NCBI GenBank assembly: GCA_947569365.1
Contig: CANOSM010000004.1
Location: forward strand, 37,261 to 77,260
Source: an uncultured Clostridium sp.
GTDB lineage: Bacteria; Bacillota; Clostridia; TANB77; CAG-508
DNA: 40,000 bases
Reading direction: 5' to 3'
The notes under the pieces are model-generated. The model worked only from the letters and a program-made list of their open reading frames with translations, ran no database searches and was not told the origin of the DNA. This document shows positions 3,776 to 34,818 of the stretch, piece by piece. How positions within the stretch are numbered: position 1 is the stretch's first letter; every line of letters begins with the position of its first letter. Position numbers and translations under genes: made by a program.

Positions 3776-4162
3776 CTATTGTTTTTTAATTTTTGGCTTA
3801 GATACTAATGATGCAATATATCCAAAGAAGATAGCTGCTGCAATTCCACCAGCACAAGCTTTAATTCCTCCTGTAAAAGCTCCAATAAATCCAGATTGTT
3901 TAACTTCTTCTATAACACCTTTTGATAGATTATAACCAAATCCAGTAAGTGGAACAGTTGCACCAGCACCTGCAAAATCTACTAAATATTGATATATTCC
4001 GAGTCCACCGAGTATTGCTCCCACAGTAACGTATAATACAAGAATTCTAGCAGAAGTCATTTTTGTTTTATCAATTAATATTTGTGCAATAACGCATAAT
4101 AGTCCACCTACTATAAAAGCATATAAAATAGTAATCCATTTTATATTTTGAAAAAATTCCAT
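3776..4162 (-). CDS. spoVAE: stage V sporulation protein AE (SpoVAEB-type)
   Basis: 128-aa polytopic membrane protein with FAGAGATVPLTGFG and GGIAAA segments characteristic of SpoVAC/SpoVAE paralogs. It is the last gene of the spoVAC-AD-AE order. Confidence 0.85.
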   Translation of the reverse strand: MEFFQNIKWITILYAFIVGGLLCVIAQILIDKTKMTSARILVLYVTVGAILGGLGIYQYLVDFAGAGATVPLTGFGYNLSKGVIEEVKQSGFIGAFTGGIKACAGGIAAAIFFGYIASLVSKPKIKKQ

Positions 4163-4178
4163 AATACACCTCTAAAAA

Positions 4179-5183
4179 TTATATTTCTATACTAACAGCA
4201 TGAGCTATTCCTGGTATACTTTCTCCTTGTTGAGCAGTAGTAGAGTTAGTTAAAGCACCAGTTGCTATTAATAATATTTTTTTAAGTTTTTTGTCTTTAA
4301 GTTTCTTAAATAAATGTCCTGAAAATACAGATGCACAACATGCACATCCAGAACCTCCTGAATGAGTGTCTTGTGATTCTTTATCAAATATTAATACACC
4401 ACAATCGTTATAATTATTTTTTATATTATAACCTTTTGATTTTGTCATTTCGATAACTATTTCTTTTCCAATGTAACCCAAATCTCCAGTAAAAATGCCG
4501 TCATAATAATTAGGACTTCTACCAGTATCTTTAAAATGTGCTACCATAGTATCAATTGCTGCAGGAGCCATAGCTGCTCCCATGCTATTTGCATCTTTGA
4601 TACCCATATCAACAATCTTTCCTGGAGTGAAATGAGTTATATAAGGTCCAGTTCCAGATTTAGAAAGTATACAAGCACCACTTCCAGTTACAGTCCACTG
4701 AGCAGCAGGTGGTCTTTGATTTCCAAGTTCTAGAGGAAACCTAAATTGTTTTTCAGCACTACAAAAATGACTAGATGCAGCACACAAAACATTTTCAAAG
4801 AAATTACCATCTACACCCATTGATCCTAATATTAAACCTTCAACAAATGTAGAGCAAGCACCAAATATTCCAAAATAAGGTACATTAACTTCACGAAGTC
4901 CAAAACTTGAAGATATACATTGGTTTAATAAATCACCAGCATAACATGCATCTATCTTATTTGATGGTATACCTGATTTTGCAATTACAGTATCTACTGT
5001 ATCTTTTATAAATCTACTTTCTGCTTTTTCCCAAGAAGATTCACCATAAAATTCATCTTCTACACATTTATCAAAGTCCTTAGCAAGAGGACCGCTAGAT
5101 TCTTTTGGACCAACTATACAAGCTGTTTCTAAAATTGTTACAGGATTTTCAATTCTGTATGTTTGATTTCCAACTTTTTTCAT
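4179..5183 (-). CDS. spoVAD: stage V sporulation protein AD
   Basis: 334 aa with GPKESSGPL, GDLLNQ, FGACST, EKQFRFP, AAQWTVTGSGA, MGAAMAPAA, HSGGSGCAC and GIAHAVSIE. This is the thiolase-like SpoVAD signature. Confidence 0.92.
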   Translation of the reverse strand: MKKVGNQTYRIENPVTILETACIVGPKESSGPLAKDFDKCVEDEFYGESSWEKAESRFIKDTVDTVIAKSGIPSNKIDACYAGDLLNQCISSSFGLREVNVPYFGIFGACSTFVEGLILGSMGVDGNFFENVLCAASSHFCSAEKQFRFPLELGNQRPPAAQWTVTGSGACILSKSGTGPYITHFTPGKIVDMGIKDANSMGAAMAPAAIDTMVAHFKDTGRSPNYYDGIFTGDLGYIGKEIVIEMTKSKGYNIKNNYNDCGVLIFDKESQDTHSGGSGCACCASVFSGHLFKKLKDKKLKKILLIATGALTNSTTAQQGESIPGIAHAVSIEI

Positions 5184-5200
5184 TTTTTACCTCCATAATT

Positions 5201-5666
5201 TTATATAAAACCAAGATATTGAACATTAAATAACATATATACAAGACCAACTAAAATAGAAGCAGATATTCCATAAACTAAAACTGGTCCTGCAACAGTA
5301 AACATTTTTGCACCAACTCCCATTACATATCCTTCTGATTTGTATTCCATAGCAGGAGATATAATAGAATTAGCAAATCCTGTAATTGGAACTAAACTTC
5401 CGAGCACCTGCAAATTTTCCAATTCTATTGAAAAGGTTTAGTGCTGTTAAAAAGGCACTTATAAAAATCAAAGAAATTGATACAACAGTTCCAGATAAAG
5501 AAGTCGAAAGACCTCTAAACTTACAATATTCTGATATTATTTCACCAATTGTGCAAATTAATCCTCCAACCCAAAAAGCATTAAAGCAATTTTTTAATAT
5601 AGGAGAATTTGGTGACTTCTTATCAACATAATCTTGATAACTTTTTTTTGTTTCTAAAGGATCCAT
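5201..5666 (-). CDS. spoVAC: stage V sporulation protein AC, reading frame broken by one extra nucleotide (pseudogene or +1 recoded)
   Basis: The ATG at 5666-5664 is preceded by a GGAGG SD. The N-terminal part (...NRIGKFAGA) and the C-terminal part (GSLVPITGFANS...) lie in two frames that join exactly if the C at 5402 (minus strand) is skipped, at GCT-C-GGA. The total of 466 nt equals 3n+1. The joined FAGAGS-VP-TGFANS matches the SpoVAC consensus I recall. Confidence 0.85.
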
Positions 5667-5689
5667 AATTACCTCCAATTTTTTATTTT

Positions 5690-5718
5690 TATTATGTGTA
5701 AAAAAACGGCAATTATGC
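5690..5718 (-). promoter_or_regulatory. forespore sigma-G/sigma-F type promoter candidate for the spoVA operon
   Basis: On the minus strand: GCATA (5718-5714), 17-nt spacer, CATAATA (5696-5690). This matches GHATR-N17/18-CATXHTA. The spoVA operon is sigma-G dependent in Bacillus. Confidence 0.4.
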
Positions 5719-5782
5719 AAAAAATTAAGAAAAATCATTATTGCATTTCTATTACATTTGATTAACACTTCTGTTAAAAATA

Positions 5783-21184: not shown

Positions 21185-21604
21185 ATGAAAAAATTGTTAT
21201 ATTATATGGTTGCAATACTTATACTAATATTATTACTTGCAGTTCCATCTTATGCATCAACACAAATTGCTACAGAAAAAGGTGTTATGGAAACAGACAA
21301 TGCAACAAAATTCTCACAAATGAAACAAGGATTTGAAGCAAAGTTTGCTCAATACTCAGATAAATATGGTTCTAAAGTTTATGGAGGAGTAGCTTTAGTA
21401 TTAGATACAATAAGAATATATAGTATACCATTTTGCTTTGTAGGTATTGCAGTAGGTGCAATATATCAATATGTAATAGGTATAAGAAAAATGGATGTAA
21501 GAGATAAAGGATTTAATTTACTAATTGCTTTTGTTACAATTTTAGTAATATGTCAAGTATTACCATTAGTATTTGCTATAATTACTAAAGGATGGGTATT
21601 ATAA
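21185..21604 (+). CDS. small secreted/membrane protein (signal peptide plus two C-terminal TM helices)
   Basis: Signal-peptide-like MKKLLYYMVAILILILLLAVPSYAS, a ~45-aa soluble segment, then two hydrophobic helices. GGGGGA SD. Translationally close to the next gene. Confidence 0.5.
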   Translation: MKKLLYYMVAILILILLLAVPSYASTQIATEKGVMETDNATKFSQMKQGFEAKFAQYSDKYGSKVYGGVALVLDTIRIYSIPFCFVGIAVGAIYQYVIGIRKMDVRDKGFNLLIAFVTILVICQVLPLVFAIITKGWVL

Positions 21605-21634
21605 TACGAGAAGACGTTTGGAGGTTTTTAACAA

Positions 21635-24600
21635 ATGAAAATTTTATTTGCAGTAAGTAACGAAAATGTTTCTGACGCAATAGTTAAAAGTTATCAAAAA
21701 AATTATAATGATAGTATTACGTATAAAAATGTATTTTACTTTAATGCAATAATTAAAGAAATTCAAAGAGATAAAGAATATGATAGAATAATTATTAGTG
21801 AAGATTTAGAACCATTTGCTAATAATAATTATGATGCTATAGATAAATTTATTTTTGAGAGATTAGATGCAATAGTTTCAGAAATAAAAGATTTTGCAGA
21901 GAAAAGAATACCTATAATATTAATATGTACTGATAGAAGAACAAAAACAAGTCCAATGATTACAAAAATATTTAACATTGGAATTTATGATGCAGTTATT
22001 GGTTCAGATAGAAAAATAGAAAATGTTTGTAGATTAATAAAGGAACCAAGGACAAAAGAAGATGCAAAACAATATTATAAAATAGAAAGCGGAGATGAAA
22101 ACAATTCTTCTGAAGTTGATATAAGTGAAGAAGAAGTTCAAAATATAGTTAATTATTATAAAAAATTAGGAAAAAATGAGGAAAGATATACAGATAGTTT
22201 TAATAATATAGCTACACAATATACAGATGCACAACTTAAAATAATTATAAGATATTTACCTATAAATGTTAAAGCTATTTTAGAATCAGAATGTGCAAAA
22301 TATCAAGAATTAGTAACATTTGATAATCCAGCGACAGTAAAAGAACAAAAAGAAAAAGAGAGACTAAGAAGAAAAAAACAAAGAGAAAAAGAAGAAGAAG
22401 AGGAAAGAATAAGAGAACAACTAGCACAAAAGAAGAAACGTGAACAAATAGAAAAGAAAAAACAGGCAAATAAATACATTCCTAATAATTCGAAAAATAA
22501 CAATCAATCAGAAAATAAAACTAGAGTGGCAACAGGAATTGGAATATTAGATAATAAAATTAATAGACCTTCAATGCAGGGGAATGTTGTAATTCCTAAT
22601 GCTATAAATACTAAACAAGCTAAAAAGGTATTATCAGACGATGAAATGAATATTCAACCTAGAAAAGTAATAAATAATGAAAATAAAACTGAAAATGTAG
22701 TAAAACCTAAGGTAGTTAATAATGAGCAAGTAGTAGAAAATAGAGAAATAAAGAAACCTGTAGAAAATAGTAAAGAGAAAATTCAAACAGTTAGTTTACC
22801 GGGATTTGAAAATATAGAAACTGACAACATACAAGTAAATGTTAGTAATGATATAGAAGAAGTAGATATAATACCAGAAGAAGTTGTAGTAAAAGAGAAA
22901 AAGGAGGATAACCCAATAAATACTGTGAAAACTCCTGAAAATGATAATAATATAGAAAAAGATATAGAAGTAGAACCAGTAAAAAAAGGAAGAGGAAGAC
23001 CAAGAAAAACTCCTCTACCAGAAGAAAATAAGATACCTATGGTTCAAGAAGTAAAAACAGATAATAATATAAAGACTGTTGAAGATAATTCAAATGATGT
23101 AAATATAATAAGTAATTTAGAAGTAGAACCAACAAAAAGAGGAAGAGGCAGACCAAGAATTACACCTATAGAAGAAGTAGTTGAAAAAACAAAAGGAAAA
23201 AGAGGCAGACCAAGAAAAACTCCTCTGCCAGAAGATAATATATCTATGGTTAAAGATATAGAAATAGATAATGATATAAAAACTACTGAAAATAATTCAA
23301 ATAGTATAGATAATGCAATAAATAATTTAGAAGTAGAACCAGTAAAAAGAGGAAGAGGTAGACCAAGAATTACACCTATAGGAGAAGTAGTTGAAAAGCC
23401 AAAAGGAAAAAGAGGCAGACCAAGAAAAACTCCTCTGCCAGAAGAAAATAATAAGCTTCAAGTAGAAGAAGTAGGAAAAGATAACTTTATTGATATAGAG
23501 GAAGTTCCTAAAAAAGTAAATAATGAGTCAGATAATCAAGTAAGTAACATATTACCAGAAGTAGAAAAAGATGATATTACATCTACATTTAGTTCTTTTG
23601 ATGCTTTTGAAGTTCCAGAAGGAAAGACAGAAGAAACAACCAGTTCAACAATTTTACCAGGTTTTGATGAAGATTTTGAAGAATTGGATAAAATAATAAA
23701 TAATGATAAACAAGAAGATACTATTGAAAACCAGAATTATAATGTATTAGATGATAACTTTGATAATATAGATGATGATAATGAAGATATTCAAGATGAT
23801 ATAAGTGTGGAAGATGAGCAAAGCGAAGAAACTTCAACATTACCAGGTATGATGGATATAGAAGATTTCGAAGACGAAGATAATGTAGAAGAAGATAATA
23901 TTAATGAAAACTTAGAAGAACAATCAGAAGAAGATATAGATTCTTACACAAAACAGGATGATTTACAAGATTTAAATGATTTAAATAATGGAGTCACAAG
24001 TAGTAATAATGTAGTAAATTCATTACCAGGTTTTGAAGACTTAGATGATATGGTAGAAGATGAAGAAGAAAGTAATATAAGTCAAGAAGAAGGGAGCTTA
24101 TTACCAGGTTTTGAAAATGACGAAATTAATTCAAGTGTGGTGGCTGCTACATCATATAGAGAATCTGATTTAGAGAGAACAGCTAGTATAAGGAAATTAG
24201 AAGAAAATAGAGTTTATTCTACTGGTTCATTACAAAGTGCACTTACTCCAGATAAGAAAATAGTAGCTTTTATAGGAACGAGTAAAAATGGAACTTCTTT
24301 TATTGTAAATAATTTAGCAAGTTTATTTTCATCAATAGGTATAAAAACAGCAATATTAGATATGACCAAAAATAGAAATGCATATTATATTTATACAAAT
24401 AATGATGAAAAATTGAGACAAGTTTCTTATGATGCGATAGATAAACTAGAAAATGGAGTTGCAGAAGGAATTAAATCTGATAGAAATTTAGATGTTTATA
24501 CTGCTGTTCCAAATGAAGAAAAAGATTTTTCAAATGCAGAAGCAATATTAACAACTTTAATAAAAAATGAATCACTTGTACTCATTGATTGTGATTATGA

Positions 24601-25102
24601 TACACCTTTAGGATATTTCGCAAATGCACAAGAAATATATTTAGTACAATCAATGGATATACTTACGATTCAGCCACTTACAGCTTTTTTAAGGGAGTTA
24701 AAAGCAAATGGAATATTAGATCAAGAAAAACTAAGAGTTGTTGTAAATAAGGAAATAAAAGTAAGAGGATTAACTTCTAAAACAATAATAGGAGGAATGT
24801 CTTTTTATAATGATCCAAGTATGTCGTATATGACAGAATTATTTAATAAAGATAAAATAAAAGCTTGTACTTTGCCTTTTGAAGATGCTATTTATTCTAA
24901 ATATTTAGAAACACTAGTAAATTGTAATGTTAGCATAAGTGGATATTCAAAAAATTTTATGAATAGTTTAAAAATTTTAGGAAATATGGTATATCCTTTA
25001 TTAAGTAAACAAACATATGTAAAAAATGGACCAGACTATACAAAAAGTAATTTTTCAACAGAAATGAATAATACTTTAAATCAGATGAGAAAGAAATATT
25101 AA
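21635..25102 (+). CDS. 1155-aa protein: pseudo-receiver N-domain, K/E coiled coil, five AT-hooks, acidic linker with LPGF motifs, degenerate ParA/MinD (TadZ/CpaE-like) C-domain
   Basis: N-terminus has a CheY-like beta/alpha pattern without the DD pair (KILFAVSNEN...RIIISEDLEP...IILICTD). Five xRGRPRxTP motifs. The C-terminus has KKIVAFIGTSKNGTSFIVNNLA...GIKTAILDM...LVLIDCDYD, i.e. a deviant Walker A lacking the GK[ST] lysine, plus a Walker B-like strand. Confidence 0.7.
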   Translation: MKILFAVSNENVSDAIVKSYQKNYNDSITYKNVFYFNAIIKEIQRDKEYDRIIISEDLEPFANNNYDAIDKFIFERLDAIVSEIKDFAEKRIPIILICTDRRTKTSPMITKIFNIGIYDAVIGSDRKIENVCRLIKEPRTKEDAKQYYKIESGDENNSSEVDISEEEVQNIVNYYKKLGKNEERYTDSFNNIATQYTDAQLKIIIRYLPINVKAILESECAKYQELVTFDNPATVKEQKEKERLRRKKQREKEEEEERIREQLAQKKKREQIEKKKQANKYIPNNSKNNNQSENKTRVATGIGILDNKINRPSMQGNVVIPNAINTKQAKKVLSDDEMNIQPRKVINNENKTENVVKPKVVNNEQVVENREIKKPVENSKEKIQTVSLPGFENIETDNIQVNVSNDIEEVDIIPEEVVVKEKKEDNPINTVKTPENDNNIEKDIEVEPVKKGRGRPRKTPLPEENKIPMVQEVKTDNNIKTVEDNSNDVNIISNLEVEPTKRGRGRPRITPIEEVVEKTKGKRGRPRKTPLPEDNISMVKDIEIDNDIKTTENNSNSIDNAINNLEVEPVKRGRGRPRITPIGEVVEKPKGKRGRPRKTPLPEENNKLQVEEVGKDNFIDIEEVPKKVNNESDNQVSNILPEVEKDDITSTFSSFDAFEVPEGKTEETTSSTILPGFDEDFEELDKIINNDKQEDTIENQNYNVLDDNFDNIDDDNEDIQDDISVEDEQSEETSTLPGMMDIEDFEDEDNVEEDNINENLEEQSEEDIDSYTKQDDLQDLNDLNNGVTSSNNVVNSLPGFEDLDDMVEDEEESNISQEEGSLLPGFENDEINSSVVAATSYRESDLERTASIRKLEENRVYSTGSLQSALTPDKKIVAFIGTSKNGTSFIVNNLASLFSSIGIKTAILDMTKNRNAYYIYTNNDEKLRQVSYDAIDKLENGVAEGIKSDRNLDVYTAVPNEEKDFSNAEAILTTLIKNESLVLIDCDYDTPLGYFANAQEIYLVQSMDILTIQPLTAFLRELKANGILDQEKLRVVVNKEIKVRGLTSKTIIGGMSFYNDPSMSYMTELFNKDKIKACTLPFEDAIYSKYLETLVNCNVSISGYSKNFMNSLKILGNMVYPLLSKQTYVKNGPDYTKSNFSTEMNNTLNQMRKKY
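22964..23449 (+). repeat. in-frame tandem repeat (units of 150, 210 and about 126 nt) encoding the AT-hook cassettes
   Basis: AATTTAGAAGTAGAACC...CCAGAAGA recurs at 23114 and 23324 (period 210 nt, about 6 mismatches in a 123-nt core by eye). The first unit at 22964 lacks the 60-nt segment that encodes the second hook. Confidence 0.9.
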
Positions 25103-25134
25103 ATATACAAAAATAGTAAAAGAGGTGGATAATT

Positions 25135-26220
25135 TTGGTCTTAATACCAATAGTTGTGCTTGTAGCAATAGTAGCAATTTTAATTTTCTATAATATAAAA
25201 ATAAAAAAACAAATAACAACTTTATCAGATATGTCTAAAAAAGTTAATAATTTAAATGTTTTACAAAACTTTATGGATATTACTGGTGAAGATATTTCAG
25301 TTGATGAAAAAATAAGAAAAGTAAATGAAATTCTTATAGAAAAGTTTGAAATAAAATATTCAACTATTGTTGTATTCAATGGAGCCGAATATATATTAAA
25401 AGCTTCAAATACAGATCAAAAATATTGGCCAAATTTAATGAACTTGCATATGGAAGATGTTTTTAAGGAAAGTATTTCTAATGCAGTTCCAAAATATATA
25501 ACAGTAGATGGAGAGGGAGAAAAACTTCCATATCAAAAATTAGATTTTGGAAGAGCTAAATCCGCAATATTTTTTCCATTATTTATAGATAATGTTTATA
25601 TTGGGTATTGGATTATTGAAAGTTCTGTAATGCATGCTTTTGATAATGTTGATATAGTATTATTAGAAGTAATTAGAGACGATATAGTAGCACTAGTAAA
25701 GACTGTTTCATATCAAGAAGCAATGGAAAGTATAGTAAGAACAGATCAATTTACAGCATTATATTCTGCAGAATATTTATATGGAAAGGCAAAGGCAAAA
25801 ATTGATTCTGAGCCAACTTCTACAGTGAGTATGTTTAGAATAACTAATATAGAAGAAATAAATAACGTATATGGAAGAGTAATGGGAAATAATATAATTA
25901 TAGAAGTTGCAAATTGGGTAAAAACTCTTATTACTTCAGACCAAATTTTTATAAGATATATGGGACCAAAATTTGTAATAGTATTTGTTGGAAAAGATAA
26001 TGACTATGCAACAGATATATTAAAAAGTATGAGAGAAGATATTGAAAGTATAGAATTAGAATCAACAAATGAAAAAGGAGAGAAGATACCTGTTAGACCT
26101 AAAGTAAATTTCGTAGTTTCAACTTATTATAAAGGTACAGGAGTTGAAAAGGTTACTAAGAAGCTAGAGGAATACTTAGATAGTGCTGATAAGCAAGAGC
26201 ATAATATTAATTATATATAA
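25135..26220 (+). CDS. membrane-anchored sensor-like protein with degenerate GGDEF domain
   Basis: TTG start after a GAGGTGG SD. N-terminal TM ([17 protein letters not shown]), a GAF-like middle region, then a GGDEF-fold pattern: [13 protein letters not shown] (D-x-LT-x-L), [17 protein letters not shown] (in place of DxDxFKxxND) and [12 protein letters not shown] (GGDEF replaced by GPKF). No RxxD I-site. Confidence 0.65.
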
Positions 26221-26237
26221 AGATAGGAGTGATGAAC

Positions 26238-26492
26238 ATGGAGAACTTTGATAAAACAATGAGCTTTAAAGTTGAAAAGGAAGATAATATAAAATCAAGA
26301 GAAATTATGAAGGAAGTATATGAAGCATTAGTAGAAAAAGGATATAATCCTATAAATCAAATTGTTGGATATATTTTGTCAGGAGATCCAACATATATAA
26401 CAAGTCATAAAAATGCAAGAAATCTAATAAGATCAGTTGAAAGAGATGAATTATTAGAGAAAATGCTAAAAAATTATATAGGATTAGAATAA
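26238..26492 (+). CDS. ireB: IreB family regulatory phosphoprotein (UPF0297/YrzL)
   Basis: [38 protein letters not shown] is the family signature. The ATG at 26238 has the best spacing from the TAGGAG SD. The listed ORF starts at GTG 26229. Confidence 0.85.
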
Positions 26493-26493
26493 T

Positions 26494-26916
26494 ATGAAAA
26501 AGAGATTGTTAGGAATAGATTATGGAGATGCAAGAGTGGGGATAGCTATATCAGATGCACTTGGAATAACTGCTCAAGGATTAAAAACTATTCATCATAA
26601 TGGAAACGATAAGATTTTATTAAAAGAACTTGATAATATATTAAATGAATATGAAATTTCTACTTTTGTTGTAGGAATGCCATATAATATGAATGGTACA
26701 AGTTCCGATAGAGTGGAAATTACAAACAAATTTATTCATAAACTTAAGTGTAAATACAATAATATACAGATAGAGACTATAGATGAAAGATTAACAACAG
26801 TTGAGGCTCATAGAACAATGAATGATTTAAATATTAATCCTCAAAATAAAAAAAATATAGTAGATACTATCTCAGCAGTATATATACTTGAAATATATAT
26901 GAATAAAATAAAATAA
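26494..26916 (+). CDS. ruvX: Holliday junction resolvase-like / pre-16S rRNA nuclease RuvX (YqgF)
   Basis: LGIDYGDARVGIAISD N-terminal motif, ...VVGMPYNMNGT...DERLTTVEA. 140 aa. Confidence 0.9.
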   Translation: MKKRLLGIDYGDARVGIAISDALGITAQGLKTIHHNGNDKILLKELDNILNEYEISTFVVGMPYNMNGTSSDRVEITNKFIHKLKCKYNNIQIETIDERLTTVEAHRTMNDLNINPQNKKNIVDTISAVYILEIYMNKIK

Positions 26917-27035
26917 TTTAGTTGCACTATTGTATAATTTAGTATATATTATATACAATATTATAAAATAAAGGATGTTTTAAGATATTAATATTTTACA
27001 AGGATTTGTAAATTTTGAAAGGAGAATATAAAAAA

Positions 27036-27356
27036 ATGGATGAAAACAAGGATTTAGAGATTGATGAGGAATTAAATAACATAATAGTATTAAATGATGA
27101 AAATGGAGATGAAGTTGAATTCGAATTTTTAGATTTAGTTGAATATGATAATGAAGAATATGTTATATTATTACCAGTAGCAGCAGAAGATGATGAAGAT
27201 TTAGGCGAGGTTGTTATATTAAAAGTTGAAGAAACAGAAAGTGAAGAAGAAGAATCTTATGTTAGCGTTGATGATGAAGAAACATTAAATAAAGTTTTTG
27301 ATATATTTAAAGATAAATTTAAAGATGAATTTAATTTTGTTGACACTGAAGAATAA
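27036..27356 (+). CDS. DUF1292 (YrzB) family acidic protein
   Basis: IVLNDENGDEVEFEFLDLVEYDNEEYVILLP...VVILKVE is the typical DUF1292 pattern. The ATG at 27036 follows an AAAGGAG SD, and the listed TTG 27015 overlaps that SD. Confidence 0.8.
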   Translation: MDENKDLEIDEELNNIIVLNDENGDEVEFEFLDLVEYDNEEYVILLPVAAEDDEDLGEVVILKVEETESEEEESYVSVDDEETLNKVFDIFKDKFKDEFNFVDTEE

Positions 27357-28737: not shown

Positions 28738-28939
28738 ATTAAAAAAGATAAGATTCATTGTGCAGAATTACTTTGAATCTTATTTACTTTTAAATAAAGA
28801 ATATTTTGAAATATATACTATAATTGAAAAACATTACTTTTTATATTATAATCTAGATGAAAAATATATTTGTGATGTATTATAAAAAATATAAAATATA
28901 ATGTTCTATTAAATTAAAATATAGAGAGGAATTATAAAA

Positions 28940-29365
28940 ATGATTAATACAAAACTAACTAAAAAGGCAATGGTTATAGCATATAATGCACATATGAATC
29001 AGTTTGATAAAGCAGGAATTCCATATATTTTTCATCCAATTCATGTAGCAGAGAAAATGGATACAGAAAATGAATGTATTGTTGCACTTTTACATGATGT
29101 TGTTGAAGATACTAATATTACATTTAAACAATTAGAAAAAGAATTTCCAAAAGAAGTAATTGATGCACTAATATTATTAACACATGATAAAGATACTGAC
29201 TATATGGATTATATTAAAAAAATAAAAGATAATTATATTGCCAAGAATGTAAAGATTGCAGATATTATACATAATTCTGATGAGACTAGGCTAGATGAAA
29301 TTAAGCAGAAAGATATTATAAGAATAAATAAATATAAAAAAGCATTAGAATATCTATTAAATTAA
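28940..29365 (+). CDS. stand-alone RelA/SpoT-type HD domain protein ((p)ppGpp hydrolase-like, small alarmone hydrolase family)
   Basis: AYNAHMNQFDKAGIPYIFHPIHVAE...IVALLHDVVEDTNITFKQLEKEFPKEVIDALILLTH matches the HD_4 pattern (H-x-GQ-x-D/RK, PY-x-x-HP, LLHDvvEDT). Confidence 0.72.
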   Translation: MINTKLTKKAMVIAYNAHMNQFDKAGIPYIFHPIHVAEKMDTENECIVALLHDVVEDTNITFKQLEKEFPKEVIDALILLTHDKDTDYMDYIKKIKDNYIAKNVKIADIIHNSDETRLDEIKQKDIIRINKYKKALEYLLN

Positions 29366-29574
29366 ATTTAAAATAATATTAAAATATTAGTATAGTTTGA
29401 TAATAAACATAAATTTTATGAAAAAATGGGAGGACAATTAATAGCAGAAGATGAAGATAATGAAAATAAAAGAATTGTTCAAGTTAAATATTATTATAAA
29501 ATCAAATAAAATAACAGAAAGTAAAAAATAAATAAATTTAGATATTTTTAAATATAAGGAGTAAATGATAAGTA

Positions 29575-30087
29575 ATGATAAATGGAATAATAATTGCAGG
29601 ATTTGCAACTTGTGGAAAAAGTGTTTTAGGGAAGAAATATAGTAATGTAATTGATTTGGAGTCAAGTAATTATAAACATAATAATACTAATATTAAAAAT
29701 ATACCTATCGAAGCGAGAAAAGGCACCAAAAGAGAAATAAGTAAAGAGTGGCCAGATAATTACTATAATGCAATTAGTGAGGCTATAAAAAAGTATGATA
29801 TAGTTTTAGTTCAATTAAAACCTGAACATTTTGACTATTTTGATAAAAACAATATAAAATATAGTATAGCATATCCAAATATTAATAATTGGGAAGAAGT
29901 TGAGAAAAAATGTATTAATAGAGGGAATAATGAAAACTTTATTAGAAAACTAAAGCAAGTATTTATACCATTTTATGAAGATTCCATACAAAGAAATTAT
30001 GAGAATTTATATATTATTAATGAAAATGAAACATTAGAAAGTGTTTTAATAAAAAATAATGTTAAATTAATAGAAAAACATAATTAA
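29575..30087 (+). CDS. P-loop NTPase / putative small kinase
   Basis: N-terminal Walker A in a beta-strand context (IIIAGFATCGKSVLGKK). 170 aa. No further family assignment is possible. Confidence 0.5.
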   Translation: MINGIIIAGFATCGKSVLGKKYSNVIDLESSNYKHNNTNIKNIPIEARKGTKREISKEWPDNYYNAISEAIKKYDIVLVQLKPEHFDYFDKNNIKYSIAYPNINNWEEVEKKCINRGNNENFIRKLKQVFIPFYEDSIQRNYENLYIINENETLESVLIKNNVKLIEKHN

Positions 30088-30180
30088 AACTTATCAGAGA
30101 AAAAATTAAAAAACTTTATATTTATTATGATATAAAAATTATAAAGTAATTTTTATAACTAAATGAGAAGGAGCAAATTA

Positions 30181-31074
30181 ATGGTAGATTTACATATACA
30201 TACAATATATTCTGATGGAGATAGAACTATAGATGAGATATTAAAATTATGTGAAGAAAAGAAATTAGAATATATTTCGATAACTGACCATAACACATGC
30301 AAAGCATATTATGACCAATCTTTAAAGAATAATAAAATATTTAAAGGCAAGATAATAAAAGGTGTTGAAATGAATGCAACATTTCAAAATAAAAAAATTG
30401 AAATTCTAGGTTATAATATAAAAGAAACACAAATAATAGAAGAGTGGTCACAAAAGTTTTTTTCAGAAGAAGTATTAAGAAAACAGTAACAGGAGTCAAA
30501 GAGGAAATTTTTAGATATATGTGATAAAAAAGGTATTATTTATGATGAAAGTAAAATACCAAGGGATGTTCCTTTAACAGATTATATAACAATATATATT
30601 TATAAAGAATTAATTAAACATAAAGAGAATCATAAAATTCTTGGTGAATATGCAAAATCATTAAATCTATTTATTAGAAAAGGATTAATGAATCCAGAAA
30701 GCGAATATTATACTGGCAGTGATGATTTGGCAAATCCAATATATGAAGATGTAATAGATATTATACATAGATCAGGAGGTTTAGCTTTTTTGGCGCATCC
30801 TTTTGAATATAGAATTGAAGATACAATTAAATTTCTTGATGATTTAATGAAGAAAAACGAGTTAGATGGAATAGAATGTTTTCATCCATCTGCTAATGAA
30901 AATGCAACGAATATATTAGTGGAATATGCAAAAAAAAATAATTTATATATTAGTGGTGGAAGTGATTATCATGGAAGCAAAAAGCCTAATATAGAAATTG
31001 GAACAGGTGATGGAAATTTAAAAATTTCTAGAAAAATGATAGAAGAATGGATAGATATAGGGGAAAATAAATAG
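30181..31074 (+). pseudogene. PHP-domain phosphoesterase (TrpH/YciV-like) with an in-frame TAA
   Basis: VDLHIHTIYSDGD and ITDHNT at the N-terminus; LAHPFEY, ECFHP and GGSDYHG at the C-terminus. Both ORFs are in the same frame, separated only by TAA at 30487-30489 (..LRKQ*QESKRK..). The ATG at 30181 follows a GAAGGAG SD. Confidence 0.7.
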
Positions 31075-31217
31075 ATAAAATTTAGTAAAAGTAACTTTAA
31101 CTACAAATAGAAATAAAAAAAATGCTTATATGAAGTATTAAAAATAGGTTTTGCATATTTTAATTAATAATAAAATAATGTAAATCAAATTAAATTTTAA
31201 CTTATAGGAGAAATATA

Positions 31218-31666
31218 ATGGAACCAGAAAGATCACACTTAGATGTGCAGTACATTTATTTTTAGTTGTTGATGGCAAAATATTAGTTGAAAAAAGAAAA
31301 AATAGAGAGTATTGCAACGGAGAATATGATGTTATTGCTTCACATATTCTAGGTGGAGAAAATGCAATTGATGCAGTGATAAGAACTGCTAAAACAGAAG
31401 TAAATATAGTAATTAAAAGGGAAGACTTAGAGATAATACAGGTAATGCATCAAAATGATAATGGACTAGAATATATAAATTATTTTTTTCTAGCTACTAA
31501 ATATTCTGGAATAATAAATAATAATGAACCACAATTTTGTGAAAATTTAGAATGGGTAGATTTTAAATATCCAGTAAACAATTTAGAAAAATACATTAAT
31601 GAAGCAATTAAAAATTATCTTGATAACCAAAATGAAAGATTTACATTTTATGGGTGGAAAAACTAA
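31218..31666 (+). pseudogene. Nudix-fold protein, 5' frameshifted and with a degenerate Nudix box
   Basis: The SD-supported ATG at 31218 is 1 nt out of frame with the long open frame (31208-31666), which encodes RCAVHLFLVVDGKILVEKRKN...GGENAIDAVIRTAKTEVNI. That frame has no start codon before GTG 31376. REXXEE is replaced by RTAKTE. Confidence 0.5.
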
Positions 31667-31856
31667 ATTTTCCAAAAACAGTGAAGAGAAAATTGAAGAA
31701 ATCATTATAATTTCACATTACGAATCTAATTACCATAAAATTAATTTAATAAATGAAGTATTGAAAAATGTGAGATTGAAAAAAGTTTAAAGCAGTAAGA
31801 GATGGAAAAGTAATTATTTAATAATAGAAAATAATAATTACTTAAAGGAGGTATTT

Positions 31857-32832
31857 ATGAATTCAAATAACAATAAAATAATGATTTATGAAGATAAAGA
31901 TGGCGTGACAAAGGTAAATGTTAAATTTATGAATGAAGATTTATGGATTACTCAAAATCAACTAGCAGAGATTTATAAAACTACTCAACAAAATATTAGC
32001 TTACATATAAAAAGTATTTATAATGATGCTGAGCTTCAAGAAAATTTAACTAACAAGAAATTCTTGTTAGTTCAAAAAGAAGAAAATAGAGAAGTAAAGA
32101 GAAATATAGATCATTATAATTTAGATATGATAATTGCTTTAGGATATAGAGTTCAATCAGAAGTAGCAGTAAGATTTAGAATATGGGCAACTGGGAAGTT
32201 ACACGAATACATACAAAAAGGTTTCACAATGGATGATGAAAGATTAAAACAAGGTGGAAATAGATATTTTAGAGAACTATTACAACGAATTAGAGATATC
32301 CGTTCAAGTGAAAGAAACTTTTATCAACAAGTAACAGATATATATGCAACAAGCATTGATTATGATCCAAGAAGTGATATGACAAAGAAATTCTTTGCGA
32401 CAGTGTAAAATAAATTACATTATGCAGTACATGAACATACAGCATCAGAGTTAATTTATGATAGAGTAGATAATGAAAAACCTTATGTAGGAATGAAAAA
32501 TTTTAAAGGAGATTATATTACAATAGATGATGTGAAAATTGCTAAAAATTATTTGTCAGAAATAGAATTACAAAGACTTAATTTATTTTTTAGATTATGC
32601 AGAATTGCAAGCATTAGAGCAAAGAAGTATGAAAATGTCAGATTGGATAGAAGAACTAGATAATCAAATATTATTGAATAGAAGAAAAATATTAGAAGGC
32701 AATGGTAAAATATCTCATGAAGAAGCAATAAAAAAAGCAGAAAAAGAATTTAATATTTATCGTGAAAGAGAAATGAGAGAATTACAAAGTGATTTTGACT
32801 TGATGATGAAATCATTACCAAATAAAAATTAA
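31857..32832 (+). pseudogene. RhuM family virulence/Fic-associated protein, nonsense plus frameshift
   Basis: Family pattern IMIYEDKDG...VNVKF..EDLWITQNQLAEIY..TQQNISLHIKSIY...FRIWATGKL..Y. There is an in-frame TAA at 32406-32408 where the family has FFATVQNKLHYA. A frame change occurs at the T6 run 32586-32591 (..LQRLNLFF / LDYAELQALEQ..). Confidence 0.8.
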
Positions 32833-32878
32833 ATTATATTCCGTCGAATTCGACGTGTTAATAAAGAAGGTGAAATAG

Positions 32879-32938
32879 ATGAGTGATAATAAAGAAGATA
32901 ATCAAGAGGTGTTTTCTAAAACCTCCATCAACTGGTAA
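32879..32938 (+). pseudogene. displaced, diverged copy of the rbgA 5' end (19 codons)
   Basis: Encodes MSDNKEDNQEVFSKTSINW*, compared with MNNNDENMSKMNINWYPGH at the intact rbgA start (34839). The SD regions are similar, and ATCAACTGGTA (32927-32937) matches ATTAACTGGTA (34875-34885). Confidence 0.5.
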
Positions 32939-33033
32939 AGCCTGATTTTAGCAAAACCATTTAAAAGTATTGAAAAATAAGCATTTCTTTTAAATAAGTT
33001 TTTACATAATTATGAAAAAATAGGAGGAATTAT

Positions 33034-33915
33034 TTGAAAAAAGATTTAATAAAGACAGAAATGATAGTAAAAGATACTATAGTAAATGTAATTAGAATTA
33101 ACGGAAGTAATTACATATCTTTAACAGATTTAGCGAGATATGCTAATCCAGAAGAACCTAAAATTCCAATACAAACATGGATGCGAAATAAAAACGTTAT
33201 TTCATTTTTAGGACTTTGGGAACAAATGTACAATTCAAATTTCAAAGGTATCGAATTCGAGACCTTTGAAAATGAAGCAGGAAAAAATAGTTTTTATTTA
33301 TCTCCGCAAAAATGGATAAATACTACAAATGCAATAGGAATCATTTCTAAATCAGGCAATAATGGCGGAACATATGCGCATTCAGATATAGCATTTGAAT
33401 TTGCAAGTTGGTTAAGTCCAGAATTTAAACTTTATTTGATTCAAGAATTTGAAAGATTAAAGAAAAACGAAGCCTATCAAAATCAAGTAGAATGGCATGC
33501 AAATAGAATGCTATCTAAAGTAAATTATTTAATACATACAGATTCAATAAAAAAGAATATTATACCGATGTTATCAGATAAACAGAAAAACTATGTTTAT
33601 GCAGAAGAAGCTGATGTGTTAAATGTAGCTTTATTTGGTATGACAGCTAAGGAGTGGAGAGAGAAATATCCTGAATTAGCTAAAGAAGGAAATATAAGAG
33701 ATTATACGGATTTATTACACTTGATTATTTTGAGTAATCTTGAAGCAAAAAATGCGGACTTAATAGCAAGTGGAATATTACAGAAAGATAGATTGGTAAT
33801 ATTGAATCAAACAGCTAAAGAACAAGTTGAATTGTTAGAGAATAATAAGAATATTAAAGAACTGCAAAGTTTACAAACAAACGTAAATAAGAAATTAATA
33901 AAAGATAAGAATTAA
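33034..33915 (+). CDS. KilA-N domain-containing protein
   Basis: TTG start after a TAGGAGG SD. NGSNYISLTDLARY...TWMRNKNVISFLGLWE...GGTYAHSDIAFEFASWLSPEFKLYLIQEFERLK is the typical KilA-N family block. Confidence 0.8.
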   Translation: MKKDLIKTEMIVKDTIVNVIRINGSNYISLTDLARYANPEEPKIPIQTWMRNKNVISFLGLWEQMYNSNFKGIEFETFENEAGKNSFYLSPQKWINTTNAIGIISKSGNNGGTYAHSDIAFEFASWLSPEFKLYLIQEFERLKKNEAYQNQVEWHANRMLSKVNYLIHTDSIKKNIIPMLSDKQKNYVYAEEADVLNVALFGMTAKEWREKYPELAKEGNIRDYTDLLHLIILSNLEAKNADLIASGILQKDRLVILNQTAKEQVELLENNKNIKELQSLQTNVNKKLIKDKN

Positions 33916-33930
33916 AAGGAAGTAATAATT

Positions 33931-34818
33931 GTGAGTAATAGTAAAAATAACAATGTAGAAAATATTTATTTTAGTGAAATAGAATTTTATAATAAGAGTA
34001 TGATTACTACTACAGATATGGAAAATGTATTTATAAATGAAGATTTATTTAAAACGCCATTATATAAAAAAATAGAAATTGATGAAAATACAATGAATTA
34101 TAAGTTTTTTCCATATGATAGTTTGAAATTAGAATTATATTGTAATGAGTGTAAAAAAAGAAGGATATATTCTTTTATGAATTCTAGAAATGCATTTATT
34201 AATATGGCACCAGGAGCATTAAGAAGTAGTGTTAAAGATGAATTTGAAAGAATAAACTTCTTTAGATTAATTGCTCAAGCTGATTGTGGACATCATGTAG
34301 TGACCGAATTTAGAGTTATAGATAAAAATCATATTGAAAAGATTGGTCAATATCCATCAATATACGATATGAATGAAGAAATAAATAACAAGCAATTTCT
34401 GAAGTTATTGGATGAAGAATATGTTTCTTATTATAAAACAGCTTGTTCTTTATATAGTTTTAATTCCTGCATAGGGGCATTAACTTATCTTAGAAGAATA
34501 TTTGAACAATTGCTAATTGAGATATTTAATTATAATAAAGATAAAATATCAATAAAATTTGATGATTATAAAAAAATGAAAATGAAGGAAAAAGTCAATG
34601 AGATAAAAAGTTATTTGCCACAAATTATGCAAGAACAAGGATTTAATACGATATATACTAAAATAAGCGATGGTATCCATAATTTAAGTGAAGAAGAATG
34701 TTCTACTATATTCCCTGTTTTAAAGGAAGGAATTGAGGAAATTTTAATTGAGAGATTAGAAGAAAAAAATAAAGAAAAACGTAGGAAAGAAATTTCTGAT
34801 AAGTTAAATAATTTATAA
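33931..34818 (+). CDS. hypothetical protein with a CxxC...CGHH zinc-ribbon-like N-region and a DUF4145-like C-region
   Basis: GTG start 15 nt after the KilA-N stop. CNECKKRR...ADCGHH pair. The C-terminal helical region (YYKTACSLYSFNSCIGALTYLRRIFEQLL...ISDGIHNLSEEE) resembles DUF4145 as I recall it. Confidence 0.5.
   Translation: MSNSKNNNVENIYFSEIEFYNKSMITTTDMENVFINEDLFKTPLYKKIEIDENTMNYKFFPYDSLKLELYCNECKKRRIYSFMNSRNAFINMAPGALRSSVKDEFERINFFRLIAQADCGHHVVTEFRVIDKNHIEKIGQYPSIYDMNEEINNKQFLKLLDEEYVSYYKTACSLYSFNSCIGALTYLRRIFEQLLIEIFNYNKDKISIKFDDYKKMKMKEKVNEIKSYLPQIMQEQGFNTIYTKISDGIHNLSEEECSTIFPVLKEGIEEILIERLEEKNKEKRRKEISDKLNNL

Follow-up and report, generated by a model that had tools for sequence, protein, structure and literature searches.

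ParA/MinD proteins are the main spatial organizers of bacterial cells, and every well-studied member known to us uses ATP-dependent binding to the nucleoid or the membrane. Their deviant Walker A motif, KGGxxGK[ST], contains both a signature lysine and a P-loop lysine. MinD and FlhG use membrane-targeting sequences, and ParA-type proteins use the nucleoid (PMC10241942). The Walker-A-like consensus of the TadZ proteins is K/RGGxGxS/T. TadZ proteins whose Walker A has no lysine still localize, although their ATPase activity is low or absent (PMC13189830). Among DNA-binding proteins with AT-hooks, HMGA2 pairs positively charged hooks with a negatively charged C-terminus (PMC4482583).

Here we describe a protein family represented by a gene at positions 21635-25102 (+ strand) of a 40,000-nucleotide stretch of DNA from an uncultured Clostridium sp. 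(contig CANOSM010000004.1; hereafter the window), which has a guanine-plus-cytosine (GC) content of about 26% throughout. The ORF list and translation give a single uninterrupted open reading frame (ORF) of 1155 amino acids (aa), and this ORF and all of the strings quoted in an initial annotation of the DNA were found in the translation. The protein is made up, in order, of a pseudo-receiver domain, a helical subdomain, a spacer of about 615 aa, a ParA/MinD-fold domain and a terminal helix. The family has kept the ParA/MinD fold, lost both Walker A lysines and added a pseudo-receiver, and most members carry canonical eukaryote-type AT-hooks in a long linker. We tentatively propose that these proteins are tethers or scaffolds that couple AT-rich chromosomal DNA to a membrane-associated complex, a reading that we prefer while judging it possible rather than probable. 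For the branch to which the window protein belongs, a nucleoid-anchored scaffold is plausible but unproven. The proposal draws on the folds, a near-invariant P-loop and DxD motif, hooks conserved at about 26% GC, operon-like membrane neighbours and the MinD-like tails of distant members.

Folded ends of the protein

Domain models were produced by AlphaFold2 fed with family alignments and were then compared with the PDB using Foldseek. Residue conservation was counted in a 42-sequence alignment, motifs were tallied over about 290 relatives, and linker features were scored in 125 full-length relatives. Nucleotide coordinates given below for parts of the protein and for its immediate neighbours are window positions on the + strand.

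The C-terminal domain (aa 851-1125; 24185..25009) was modelled at a predicted local distance difference test (pLDDT) score of about 85-95 (mean of the C-terminal model, 81). ParA, MinD, FlhG, Soj and FleN are its top PDB matches, and BcsQ and NifH are also matched, with expectation values (E) down to 3e-8, a target-normalized template modelling score of about 0.7 and 230 PDB matches at E<=1e-3. The MinD/ParA-like layout noted for this end in the initial annotation is thus borne out as a predicted fold. Weak Pfam matches occur among homologues (CbiA in 17 of 35, best E 2.8e-5; MipZ in 5 of 35), and the window protein has none. A family profile of the C-domain, searched against 1.84 billion representative proteins, found 417 relatives; it reached no canonical ParA/MinD protein among these representatives or among PDB sequences. 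Given that these 417 were the only profile matches, the family appears to be an isolated branch that HMMER does not link to canonical ParA/MinD. Alignment of the C-domain profile by hhalign with an approximate sequence of E. coli MinD gave no meaningful result.

The P-loop, GTSKNGTS (aa 881-888; 24275..24298), was recognized from a family motif and the geometry of the model, in which strand beta1 (KIVAFI) leads into a loop of six residues and a helix that starts at Thr887. Reading the register from this beta1-loop-helix geometry gives GxxxxGx[ST] (Gly881, Gly886), with Thr882 at the position of the signature lysine, Thr887 at that of the GK[ST] lysine and Lys884 at x4. Because the sole P-loop lysine sits at x4, the signature lysine is missing too, and both canonical lysines are gone. 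The GK[ST] lysine had already been reported as absent; the signature lysine had been reported as present, which proved wrong. The family form of the motif, G-[TAS]-x-K-x-G-[TVN]-[ST], is found in about 285 of 289 relatives. As initially described, a hydrophobic-D Walker B is present (LVLIDCD at aa 981-987, within LVLIDCDYD; 24575..24595), and D[CAS]D occurs in 267 of 269 relatives. Invariant in the alignment are Gly881, Lys884, Gly886, Asp909 (at the end of beta2), Asp985 and Asp987; Lys884 and the DxD motif are nearly invariant in the larger set, and Ser888 is among the conserved residues of the site. By its modelled structure, the C-domain belongs to the ParA/MinD superfamily, yet it does not have the deviant Walker A that defines the group. 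The invariant P-loop, Asp909 and DxD residues argue for a ligand site that has been retained rather than one that has decayed, and the loss of ATP dependence proposed in the initial annotation is, going by the residues, unproven.

The domain is followed by a conserved C-terminal helix, FSTEMNNTLNQMRKKY (aa 1140-1155; 25052..25099), which was identified by its conservation in the subfamily (consensus FSxxMNxTLNQMKKKY). In the model this helix is detached (pLDDT 53-63) and follows a stretch scored below 50. For the window branch, we consider it a weak candidate for membrane binding. The C-termini of distant members are basic and end in GLF or FFG-type tails (e.g., KKKGLF, KKFFG, RRGIFG), which we take to resemble MinD membrane-targeting sequences.

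At the other end, aa 1-140 (21635..22054) were modelled as a pseudo-receiver domain at a pLDDT of about 90-97 (mean of the N-terminal region, 90), with a (beta-alpha)5 fold over aa 1-136. The top PDB matches are the receivers of ComE, RcsB, NarL and Rcp1 (E about 1e-4 to 1e-3), and the N-domains of CpaE and pilus-assembly proteins (4myr, 4n0p, 4dad) rank slightly lower (E 2-3e-3, against 1.7e-4 for the best receiver). Neither the acidic pair after beta1 nor the lysine after beta5 is conserved, in agreement with the initial annotation, which had noted both absences and a CheY-like pattern at this end. Directly after beta3, Glu56 (in ISEDLEP) is invariant and is kept in the distant members that were read. 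Comparison with ISDWNMP of CheY would place Glu56 at the position of the phospho-acceptor aspartate, going by strand position rather than by structural superposition. The N-terminal domain is predicted to have a receiver fold from which the catalytic residues (acceptor Asp, acidic pair and Lys) are missing.

The conserved N-terminal region does not end at about 150 aa, as initially described, and extends to about aa 230 through a conserved helical subdomain of five helices (aa 160-230; 22112..22324; pLDDT 86-96). This bundle (aa 165-228 in the model) bears the motif QYTDxQLxIIxxxLPxxVKAxLE and is retained in distant members. Full-length regulators of the NarL/RcsB/DesR type align over 215-240 columns of the N-terminal model, at a root-mean-square deviation (rmsd) of 10-18 A. 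The bundle may thus resemble the helical output domain of NarL-type regulators, although the match is only suggestive.

Both ends modelled as receiver and ParA folds, and sequence searches returned little. Nothing in Pfam or NCBIfam matched the whole protein above threshold. No Pfam family matched the window N-domain at E<=1, the Response_reg and TadZ N-terminal models included, no receiver-type family was matched by the 42 homologues, and neither of the two models figures in the summary of their matches. PDB sequence searches with the N- and C-domains (phmmer and family profiles) gave no significant match; the sole PDB hit was an insignificant one to the P-loop of adenylate kinase, which is consistent with the GxxxxGx[ST] register. 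PADLOC found no match to a defence system, and PHROGs gave weak matches only, to families of unknown function. Database relatives of the C-domain (756) and of the N-domain (245) are all unnamed or labelled 'hypothetical protein', apart from one 'BcsQ' label taken from a source. This agrees with the statement in the initial annotation that the fusion was not known to have been described, and no paper that joins AT-hook, ParA-like and nucleoid was found in the library searched. We conclude that this is a conserved, unnamed family, neither end of which is covered by a Pfam or NCBIfam model.

The linker and the distribution of the family

A charge-hydropathy criterion places all of aa 235-850 on the disordered side and both ends on the folded side. 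About 700 aa of disorder had been expected between the ends; low hydropathy was indeed found, and the length is closer to 615 aa because the conserved N-terminal region reaches about aa 230. The linker opens with a K/E/R-rich charged helix (aa 235-280; 22337..22474), recognized by its composition and encoded by a purine-rich low-complexity repeat. Charged residues make up 32 of its 46 positions and hydrophobic residues five, and a heptad pattern is absent. The stretch had been called a coiled coil, and we instead consider it to be probably a spacer formed by a single alpha-helix of the ER/K type.

The central feature of the linker is a block of five AT-hook motifs (aa 450-600; 22982..23434), evident from the translation and from a tandem repeat. 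All five of the RGRP cores listed in the initial annotation are present in the contexts quoted there, at aa 453, 504, 523, 574 and 593, each flanked by K/R and Pro. They lie within a 210-nucleotide (nt) tandem repeat (2.2 copies, 86% match, nt 22990-23451), and the number five thus reflects a recent tandem duplication of a 70-aa unit that contains a conserved two-hook module. Among the full-length relatives, two hooks occur in 73, one in seven, three in four and none in 40, and only the window protein has five; 85 of the 125 therefore have at least one. Since 73 of these proteins carry two hooks, we conclude that the motif is conserved and not due to chance. The usual spacing in two-hook members is 17-29 aa, the conserved flanks are PK[RG]KRGRPRKxP, and an example of the bivalent module is PVKRGRGRPRKYPxxxxPKPKGKRGRPRKNPLPEE. 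This bivalent form is the ancestral one. In the near subfamily its sequence, spacing and position are kept while the C-domains are only 57-75% identical, which argues for purifying selection on the hooks.

The Pfam AT_hook model scores the window protein below threshold (10.2 bits, with a cut-off of 17.4), and homologues reach E 6e-6. In sequence terms all five motifs have the features that define HMGA-type AT-hooks (an RGRP core, basic and Pro flanks and a disordered setting), and the family would be a rare, well-conserved bacterial example of them. In close relatives that have no hooks, the corresponding position is taken by a Lys-rich basic block, and the same acidic block comes next. Their genomes are equally AT-rich (25-28% GC), and hook presence does not track GC content.

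C-terminal to the hooks is an acidic block (aa 606-850; 23450..24184), defined by its net charge (-69, versus +6 over the hook block at aa 441-605) and by four of the five LPG[FM][DE] motifs of the protein. These motifs, which the initial annotation did not mention, are at aa 674, 736, 797 and 823, with the fifth at aa 388. The family consensus, [DE][DE]x[TIVL]LPG[LFM][DE][DE], occurs in zero to 16 copies, and it is C-terminal to the hooks in 64 of the 67 relatives that have both. LPGF presumably recalls the C-terminal peptide of FtsZ ([IL]-P-x-F) or the tip of SSB (DDD[IL]PF), a mere lead on which we do not rely.

Two other short linear motifs were identified in the linker. RPxxxxxVVIPxxxxTxxxKK (aa 311-332; 22565..22630) was derived from the consensus of relatives and stands out in a linker that is not conserved elsewhere; its core, P[VI][VI][IV]P[STNA]x[VLI], is present in 63 of the 125. 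The window copy, NVVIPNAI, does not have the first Pro of that core, and its homology was counted by position. In many homologues YTDEVxLPGLDDLDDLD immediately precedes the C-domain, and the window protein has a degenerate form of it at about aa 770-786. Both motifs probably serve as peptides on which partners dock.

A scan of one genome per species identified at least 583 genomes that encode the family. All 80 of the loci fetched are from uncultured animal-gut Clostridia, including Candidatus Scatovivens and Candidatus Merdicola. Where contigs allow, the protein is encoded by one fused ORF, and the 125 full-length examples range from 553 to 1434 aa (median 894). Distant members keep the N- and C-terminal modules and carry neither hooks nor any basic block. 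In these proteins the linkers consist of long ER/K-type charged repeats, PKVEP-type proline-rich repeats or QQPPM repeats, and the ER/K-type repeats, which occupy the position of the charged helix, are much longer than in the window protein. A search seeded with a distant member found seven relatives, none of them named.

In public protein sets the family is mostly present as separate N- and C-terminal fragments, some of which are on contigs of equal length (P0124/P0032, P0127/P0072 and P0190/P0081). This fragmentation is probably due to assemblies or gene callers that break in the repetitive linker. Thus, the fused architecture is under-reported by automated annotation.

Gene neighbourhood

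Directly upstream of the focal gene is a gene for a small membrane protein of 139 aa (21185..21604), identified by synteny and hydrophobicity. It has a signal peptide or N-terminal anchor, a variable outer segment and two hydrophobic transmembrane helices connected by a short conserved basic loop, IGIRKMDVRDKGF. This gene adjoins the focal gene in all 70 of the related loci that include upstream DNA, and it is also upstream in two distant loci (L081, 9405-9953; L082, 9508-9993). Even in distant genomes the cytoplasmic loop keeps the form [IV]G[IN][RK]K[LM]D.[RK][DE][KQ]GF. The protein has no match in Pfam or NCBIfam. One distant copy has a sub-threshold match to PF18895 (T4SS_pilin, E 2e-4), which is a lead only, and two distant copies match phrog_5422, of unknown function. 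We consider this protein a candidate membrane partner of the focal protein.

Directly downstream of the focal gene is one that encodes a membrane-anchored protein, the GGDEF domain of which is degenerate (25135..26220; Pfam GGDEF, E 7e-12; NCBIfam TIGR00254). RYMGPKF replaces the GGDEF motif and ITSD replaces the RxxD I-site, and from these motifs the protein looks like a pseudo-enzyme that was recruited to the module. The gene is downstream in 80 of 80 near relatives and absent from L081 and L082. Genes for ireB, ruvX and a DUF1292 protein follow (26229..27356; Pfam), as they do in 77-79 of the 80 loci and in the distant loci. The layout is operon-like, with 30-nt gaps, and no terminator-like site was found on the + strand across 21185-27356. 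A promoter scan returned 96 sites where 80 were expected, which is uninformative at the GC content of the window. The two-transmembrane-helix protein, the focal protein and the pseudo-GGDEF protein form a conserved three-gene module without annotated function, carried by at least 583 species of uncultured Clostridia from animal guts, and the synteny is strict. Other neighbours are often envelope-related: a G5-SH3-glucosaminidase protein in the window, and PBP5 and Cu_amine_oxidN1 proteins in the distant loci.

A type IV pilus cluster (9555-15514), with PilD at 9555, PilB at 11394, PilT at 13047 and PilC, lies 6-12 kb upstream of the focal gene. The PilC (T2SSF) gene is split into overlapping ORFs (14191-14652 and 14606-15514), which points to a frameshift, a pseudogene or an error in sequencing; PilD, PilB and PilT look intact. 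A PilC relative is present in only one of the 80 related loci, for which the fetched flanks reach about 5 kb upstream of the gene.

Elsewhere in the window, an AlbA_2/Schlafen ORF (17227-17970) and a HATPase_c_4/Fic-like_C ORF (18002-18427) look like halves of one split regulator gene (17227-18427). The region at 28900-34800 contains short gene fragments (HD_4 and PHP ORFs of 141 and 108 aa, respectively) and the mobile-element-type genes RhuM (31857) and KilA-N (33034). Few relatives, if any, of its ORFs occur in related loci, and the patch looks decayed or horizontally acquired. A SpoVAC/SpoVAD/SpoVAEB operon (3776-5768, - strand) is also present, and the organism is thus probably a spore former. 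Spo0A was identified on the contig of the distant locus L081.

Possible functions and relation to known systems

In the mechanism that we favour, the AT-hooks, or the Lys-rich blocks of some relatives, would keep the linker attached to AT-rich chromosomal DNA, largely irrespective of sequence. The MinD-like end would bind nucleotide and hardly hydrolyse it, and would serve as a dimerization and docking module at the membrane. Docking would occur via the neighbouring membrane protein or proteins, or via the conserved C-terminal tail. The tail of the window branch is polar and not significantly amphipathic, and docking by way of the adjacent membrane proteins is therefore no less likely than direct lipid binding. 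The result would be nucleoid-to-envelope coupling by a static or slowly switching scaffold, more like Noc or TadZ than a gradient motor of the ParA type. The acidic block may serve to mask the hooks or to cross-link molecules, by analogy with the acidic tail of HMGA proteins. We infer nucleoid binding from the hooks, and action at the membrane from the MinD fold, the tail and the membrane neighbours. If the hooks do bind DNA and the ends do dock at the membrane, the design would differ from those of known systems, with positioning or tethering achieved without a nucleotide cycle.

Several observations weigh against such a tether. DNA binding cannot be the function of the whole family, because distant members have neither hooks nor a basic block. 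None of the invariant residues in the helical subdomain is basic (they are acidic, polar or hydrophobic); thus, we do not call this subdomain DNA-binding, and it provides no second DNA site. The tail helix of the window branch is polar and low in mean hydrophobicity, and its hydrophobic moment of 0.38 is reached by 10% of shuffled sequences (not significant). Nucleotide binding is putative, deduced from residue conservation. In addition, all carriers of the family are uncultured.

The distant members raise the question of whether the hooks are incidental, in which case the protein would be an envelope-associated scaffold or ruler that functions through its ends and the small membrane partner, and the linker would be a long entropic or extended spacer that drifts in composition (AT-hooks, Lys-rich, ER/K helix or Pro-rich) and plays no part in DNA binding. 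We regard this as rather doubtful. It would account for the distant members, which have ER/K, PKVEP or QQPPM repeats and yet retain both ends, the ireB-ruvX synteny and the small membrane protein, and for the neighbours that are often envelope-related; it is also compatible with the 40 full-length members that have no RGRP and with the independence of hook presence from GC content. It does not explain the purifying selection on the two-hook module, nor the persistence of a basic block at the same place where hooks were lost. If the hooks are taken as the key to function instead, the protein could be an HMGA/CarD-like chromatin or transcription factor with a NarL-like head, hooks that bend AT-rich promoter DNA and a MinD-like end that oligomerizes, with a role in neither membrane association nor positioning. 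The alignment of NarL/RcsB/DesR-type regulators to the N-terminal model is in keeping with this, as is the order of hooks and acidic block, which resembles HMGA and the HMGA-type domain of CarD (PMC2919716, PMC4482583). We think it unlikely, given the non-basic invariants of the helical subdomain, the high rmsd (10-18 A) of the full-length regulator matches, the strict linkage to membrane-protein genes and the existence of members without hooks.

The pilus cluster upstream invites the reading of the protein as an orthologue of TadZ/CpaE with the task of positioning the type IV pilus machinery. The atypical receiver domain-like plus MinD-like architecture matches that of TadZ and CpaE N-domains are among the fold matches, but the cluster is of the PilB/PilT rather than the Tad type, unrelated genes lie between it and the focal gene, and a PilC relative accompanies the family in one of 80 loci (within flanks of about 5 kb). 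The P-loop also departs from K/RGGxGxS/T, no Pfam family, the TadZ N-terminal model included, matches the N-domain, and TadZ has no long linker, all of which makes orthology very improbable. The tether is preferred to these alternatives because the family combines two spaced folded ends with a dedicated membrane protein, and because the spacer of this branch carries a candidate DNA-binding element and an acidic block. A bolder version, which we consider quite unlikely, is a hard-wired nucleoid-to-envelope tether built of pseudo-enzyme modules. Cycling would have been given up, the hooks would be permanently on the nucleoid, and the ends would be docked on a T4SS-pilin-like hairpin and a pseudo-diguanylate cyclase. 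In this order of gut Clostridia, which is large, uncultured and low in GC, such a tether would carry out, in growing or sporulating cells, spatial work (for example, placing the division site or the chromosome) that falls to Min, Noc or ParAB elsewhere.

We regard the family as divergent, putative scaffolds of the ParA/MinD fold with a pseudo-receiver and AT-hooks. With TadZ/CpaE, it shares an N-terminal receiver fold without phospho-acceptor chemistry and a C-terminal MinD/ParA fold without the P-loop lysine, and by analogy both are probably scaffolds of low or no turnover. The initial annotation had described the ends as TadZ/CpaE-like; the folds agree with this, whereas membership of that group is contradicted by the absence of a tad locus and by the P-loop. 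The focal P-loop has also lost the signature lysine and the GG pair, and the family adds a helical subdomain, a linker of 300-900 aa, AT-hooks and acidic LPG repeats. Its conserved partner is the small two-transmembrane-helix protein. Because the synteny is with ireB, ruvX and DUF1292 and never with a tad locus, and because distant members swap the hooks for other spacers, the likeness to TadZ is one of fold only.

MinD and FlhG have the same fold and, like the focal protein, end in a short conserved tail that follows a flexible linker. Unlike them, the focal protein lacks both Walker A lysines, and the tail of the window branch is polar, with membrane binding putative; no MinC/MinE or flagellar gene context was seen around the family. 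ParA/Soj, McdA and PomZ combine a ParA fold with non-specific DNA association, which is presumed for the focal family. In ParA proteins DNA is bound by the surface of the ATP dimer and binding cycles with hydrolysis, whereas the candidates here are AT-hooks in the linker, which would act independently of nucleotide. No ParB-like partner gene is beside the focal gene, and a chromosomal ParA/Soj was rejected for this reason and because the P-loop is degenerate.

The multiple RGRP hooks with K/R and Pro flanks, in a disordered region with an acidic segment, are a likeness to HMGA and to the HMGA-type domain of Myxococcus CarD (PMC4482583, PMC2919716). The focal hooks differ in lying between two folded domains of the signalling or positioning type, the acidic part contains LPG[LFM][DE][DE] repeats, and the CarD_TRCF domain through which CarD interacts with RNA polymerase is not present. 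Noc, the nucleoid occlusion protein of Bacillus, is similar in proposed logic only, as a single polypeptide that joins chromosomal DNA to the membrane or a membrane complex. It is unrelated in fold and sequence, being a ParB-like protein that binds specific sites and has an N-terminal amphipathic helix. By analogy, the focal protein appears nearest to TadZ/CpaE in architecture and nearest to Noc in its proposed logic.

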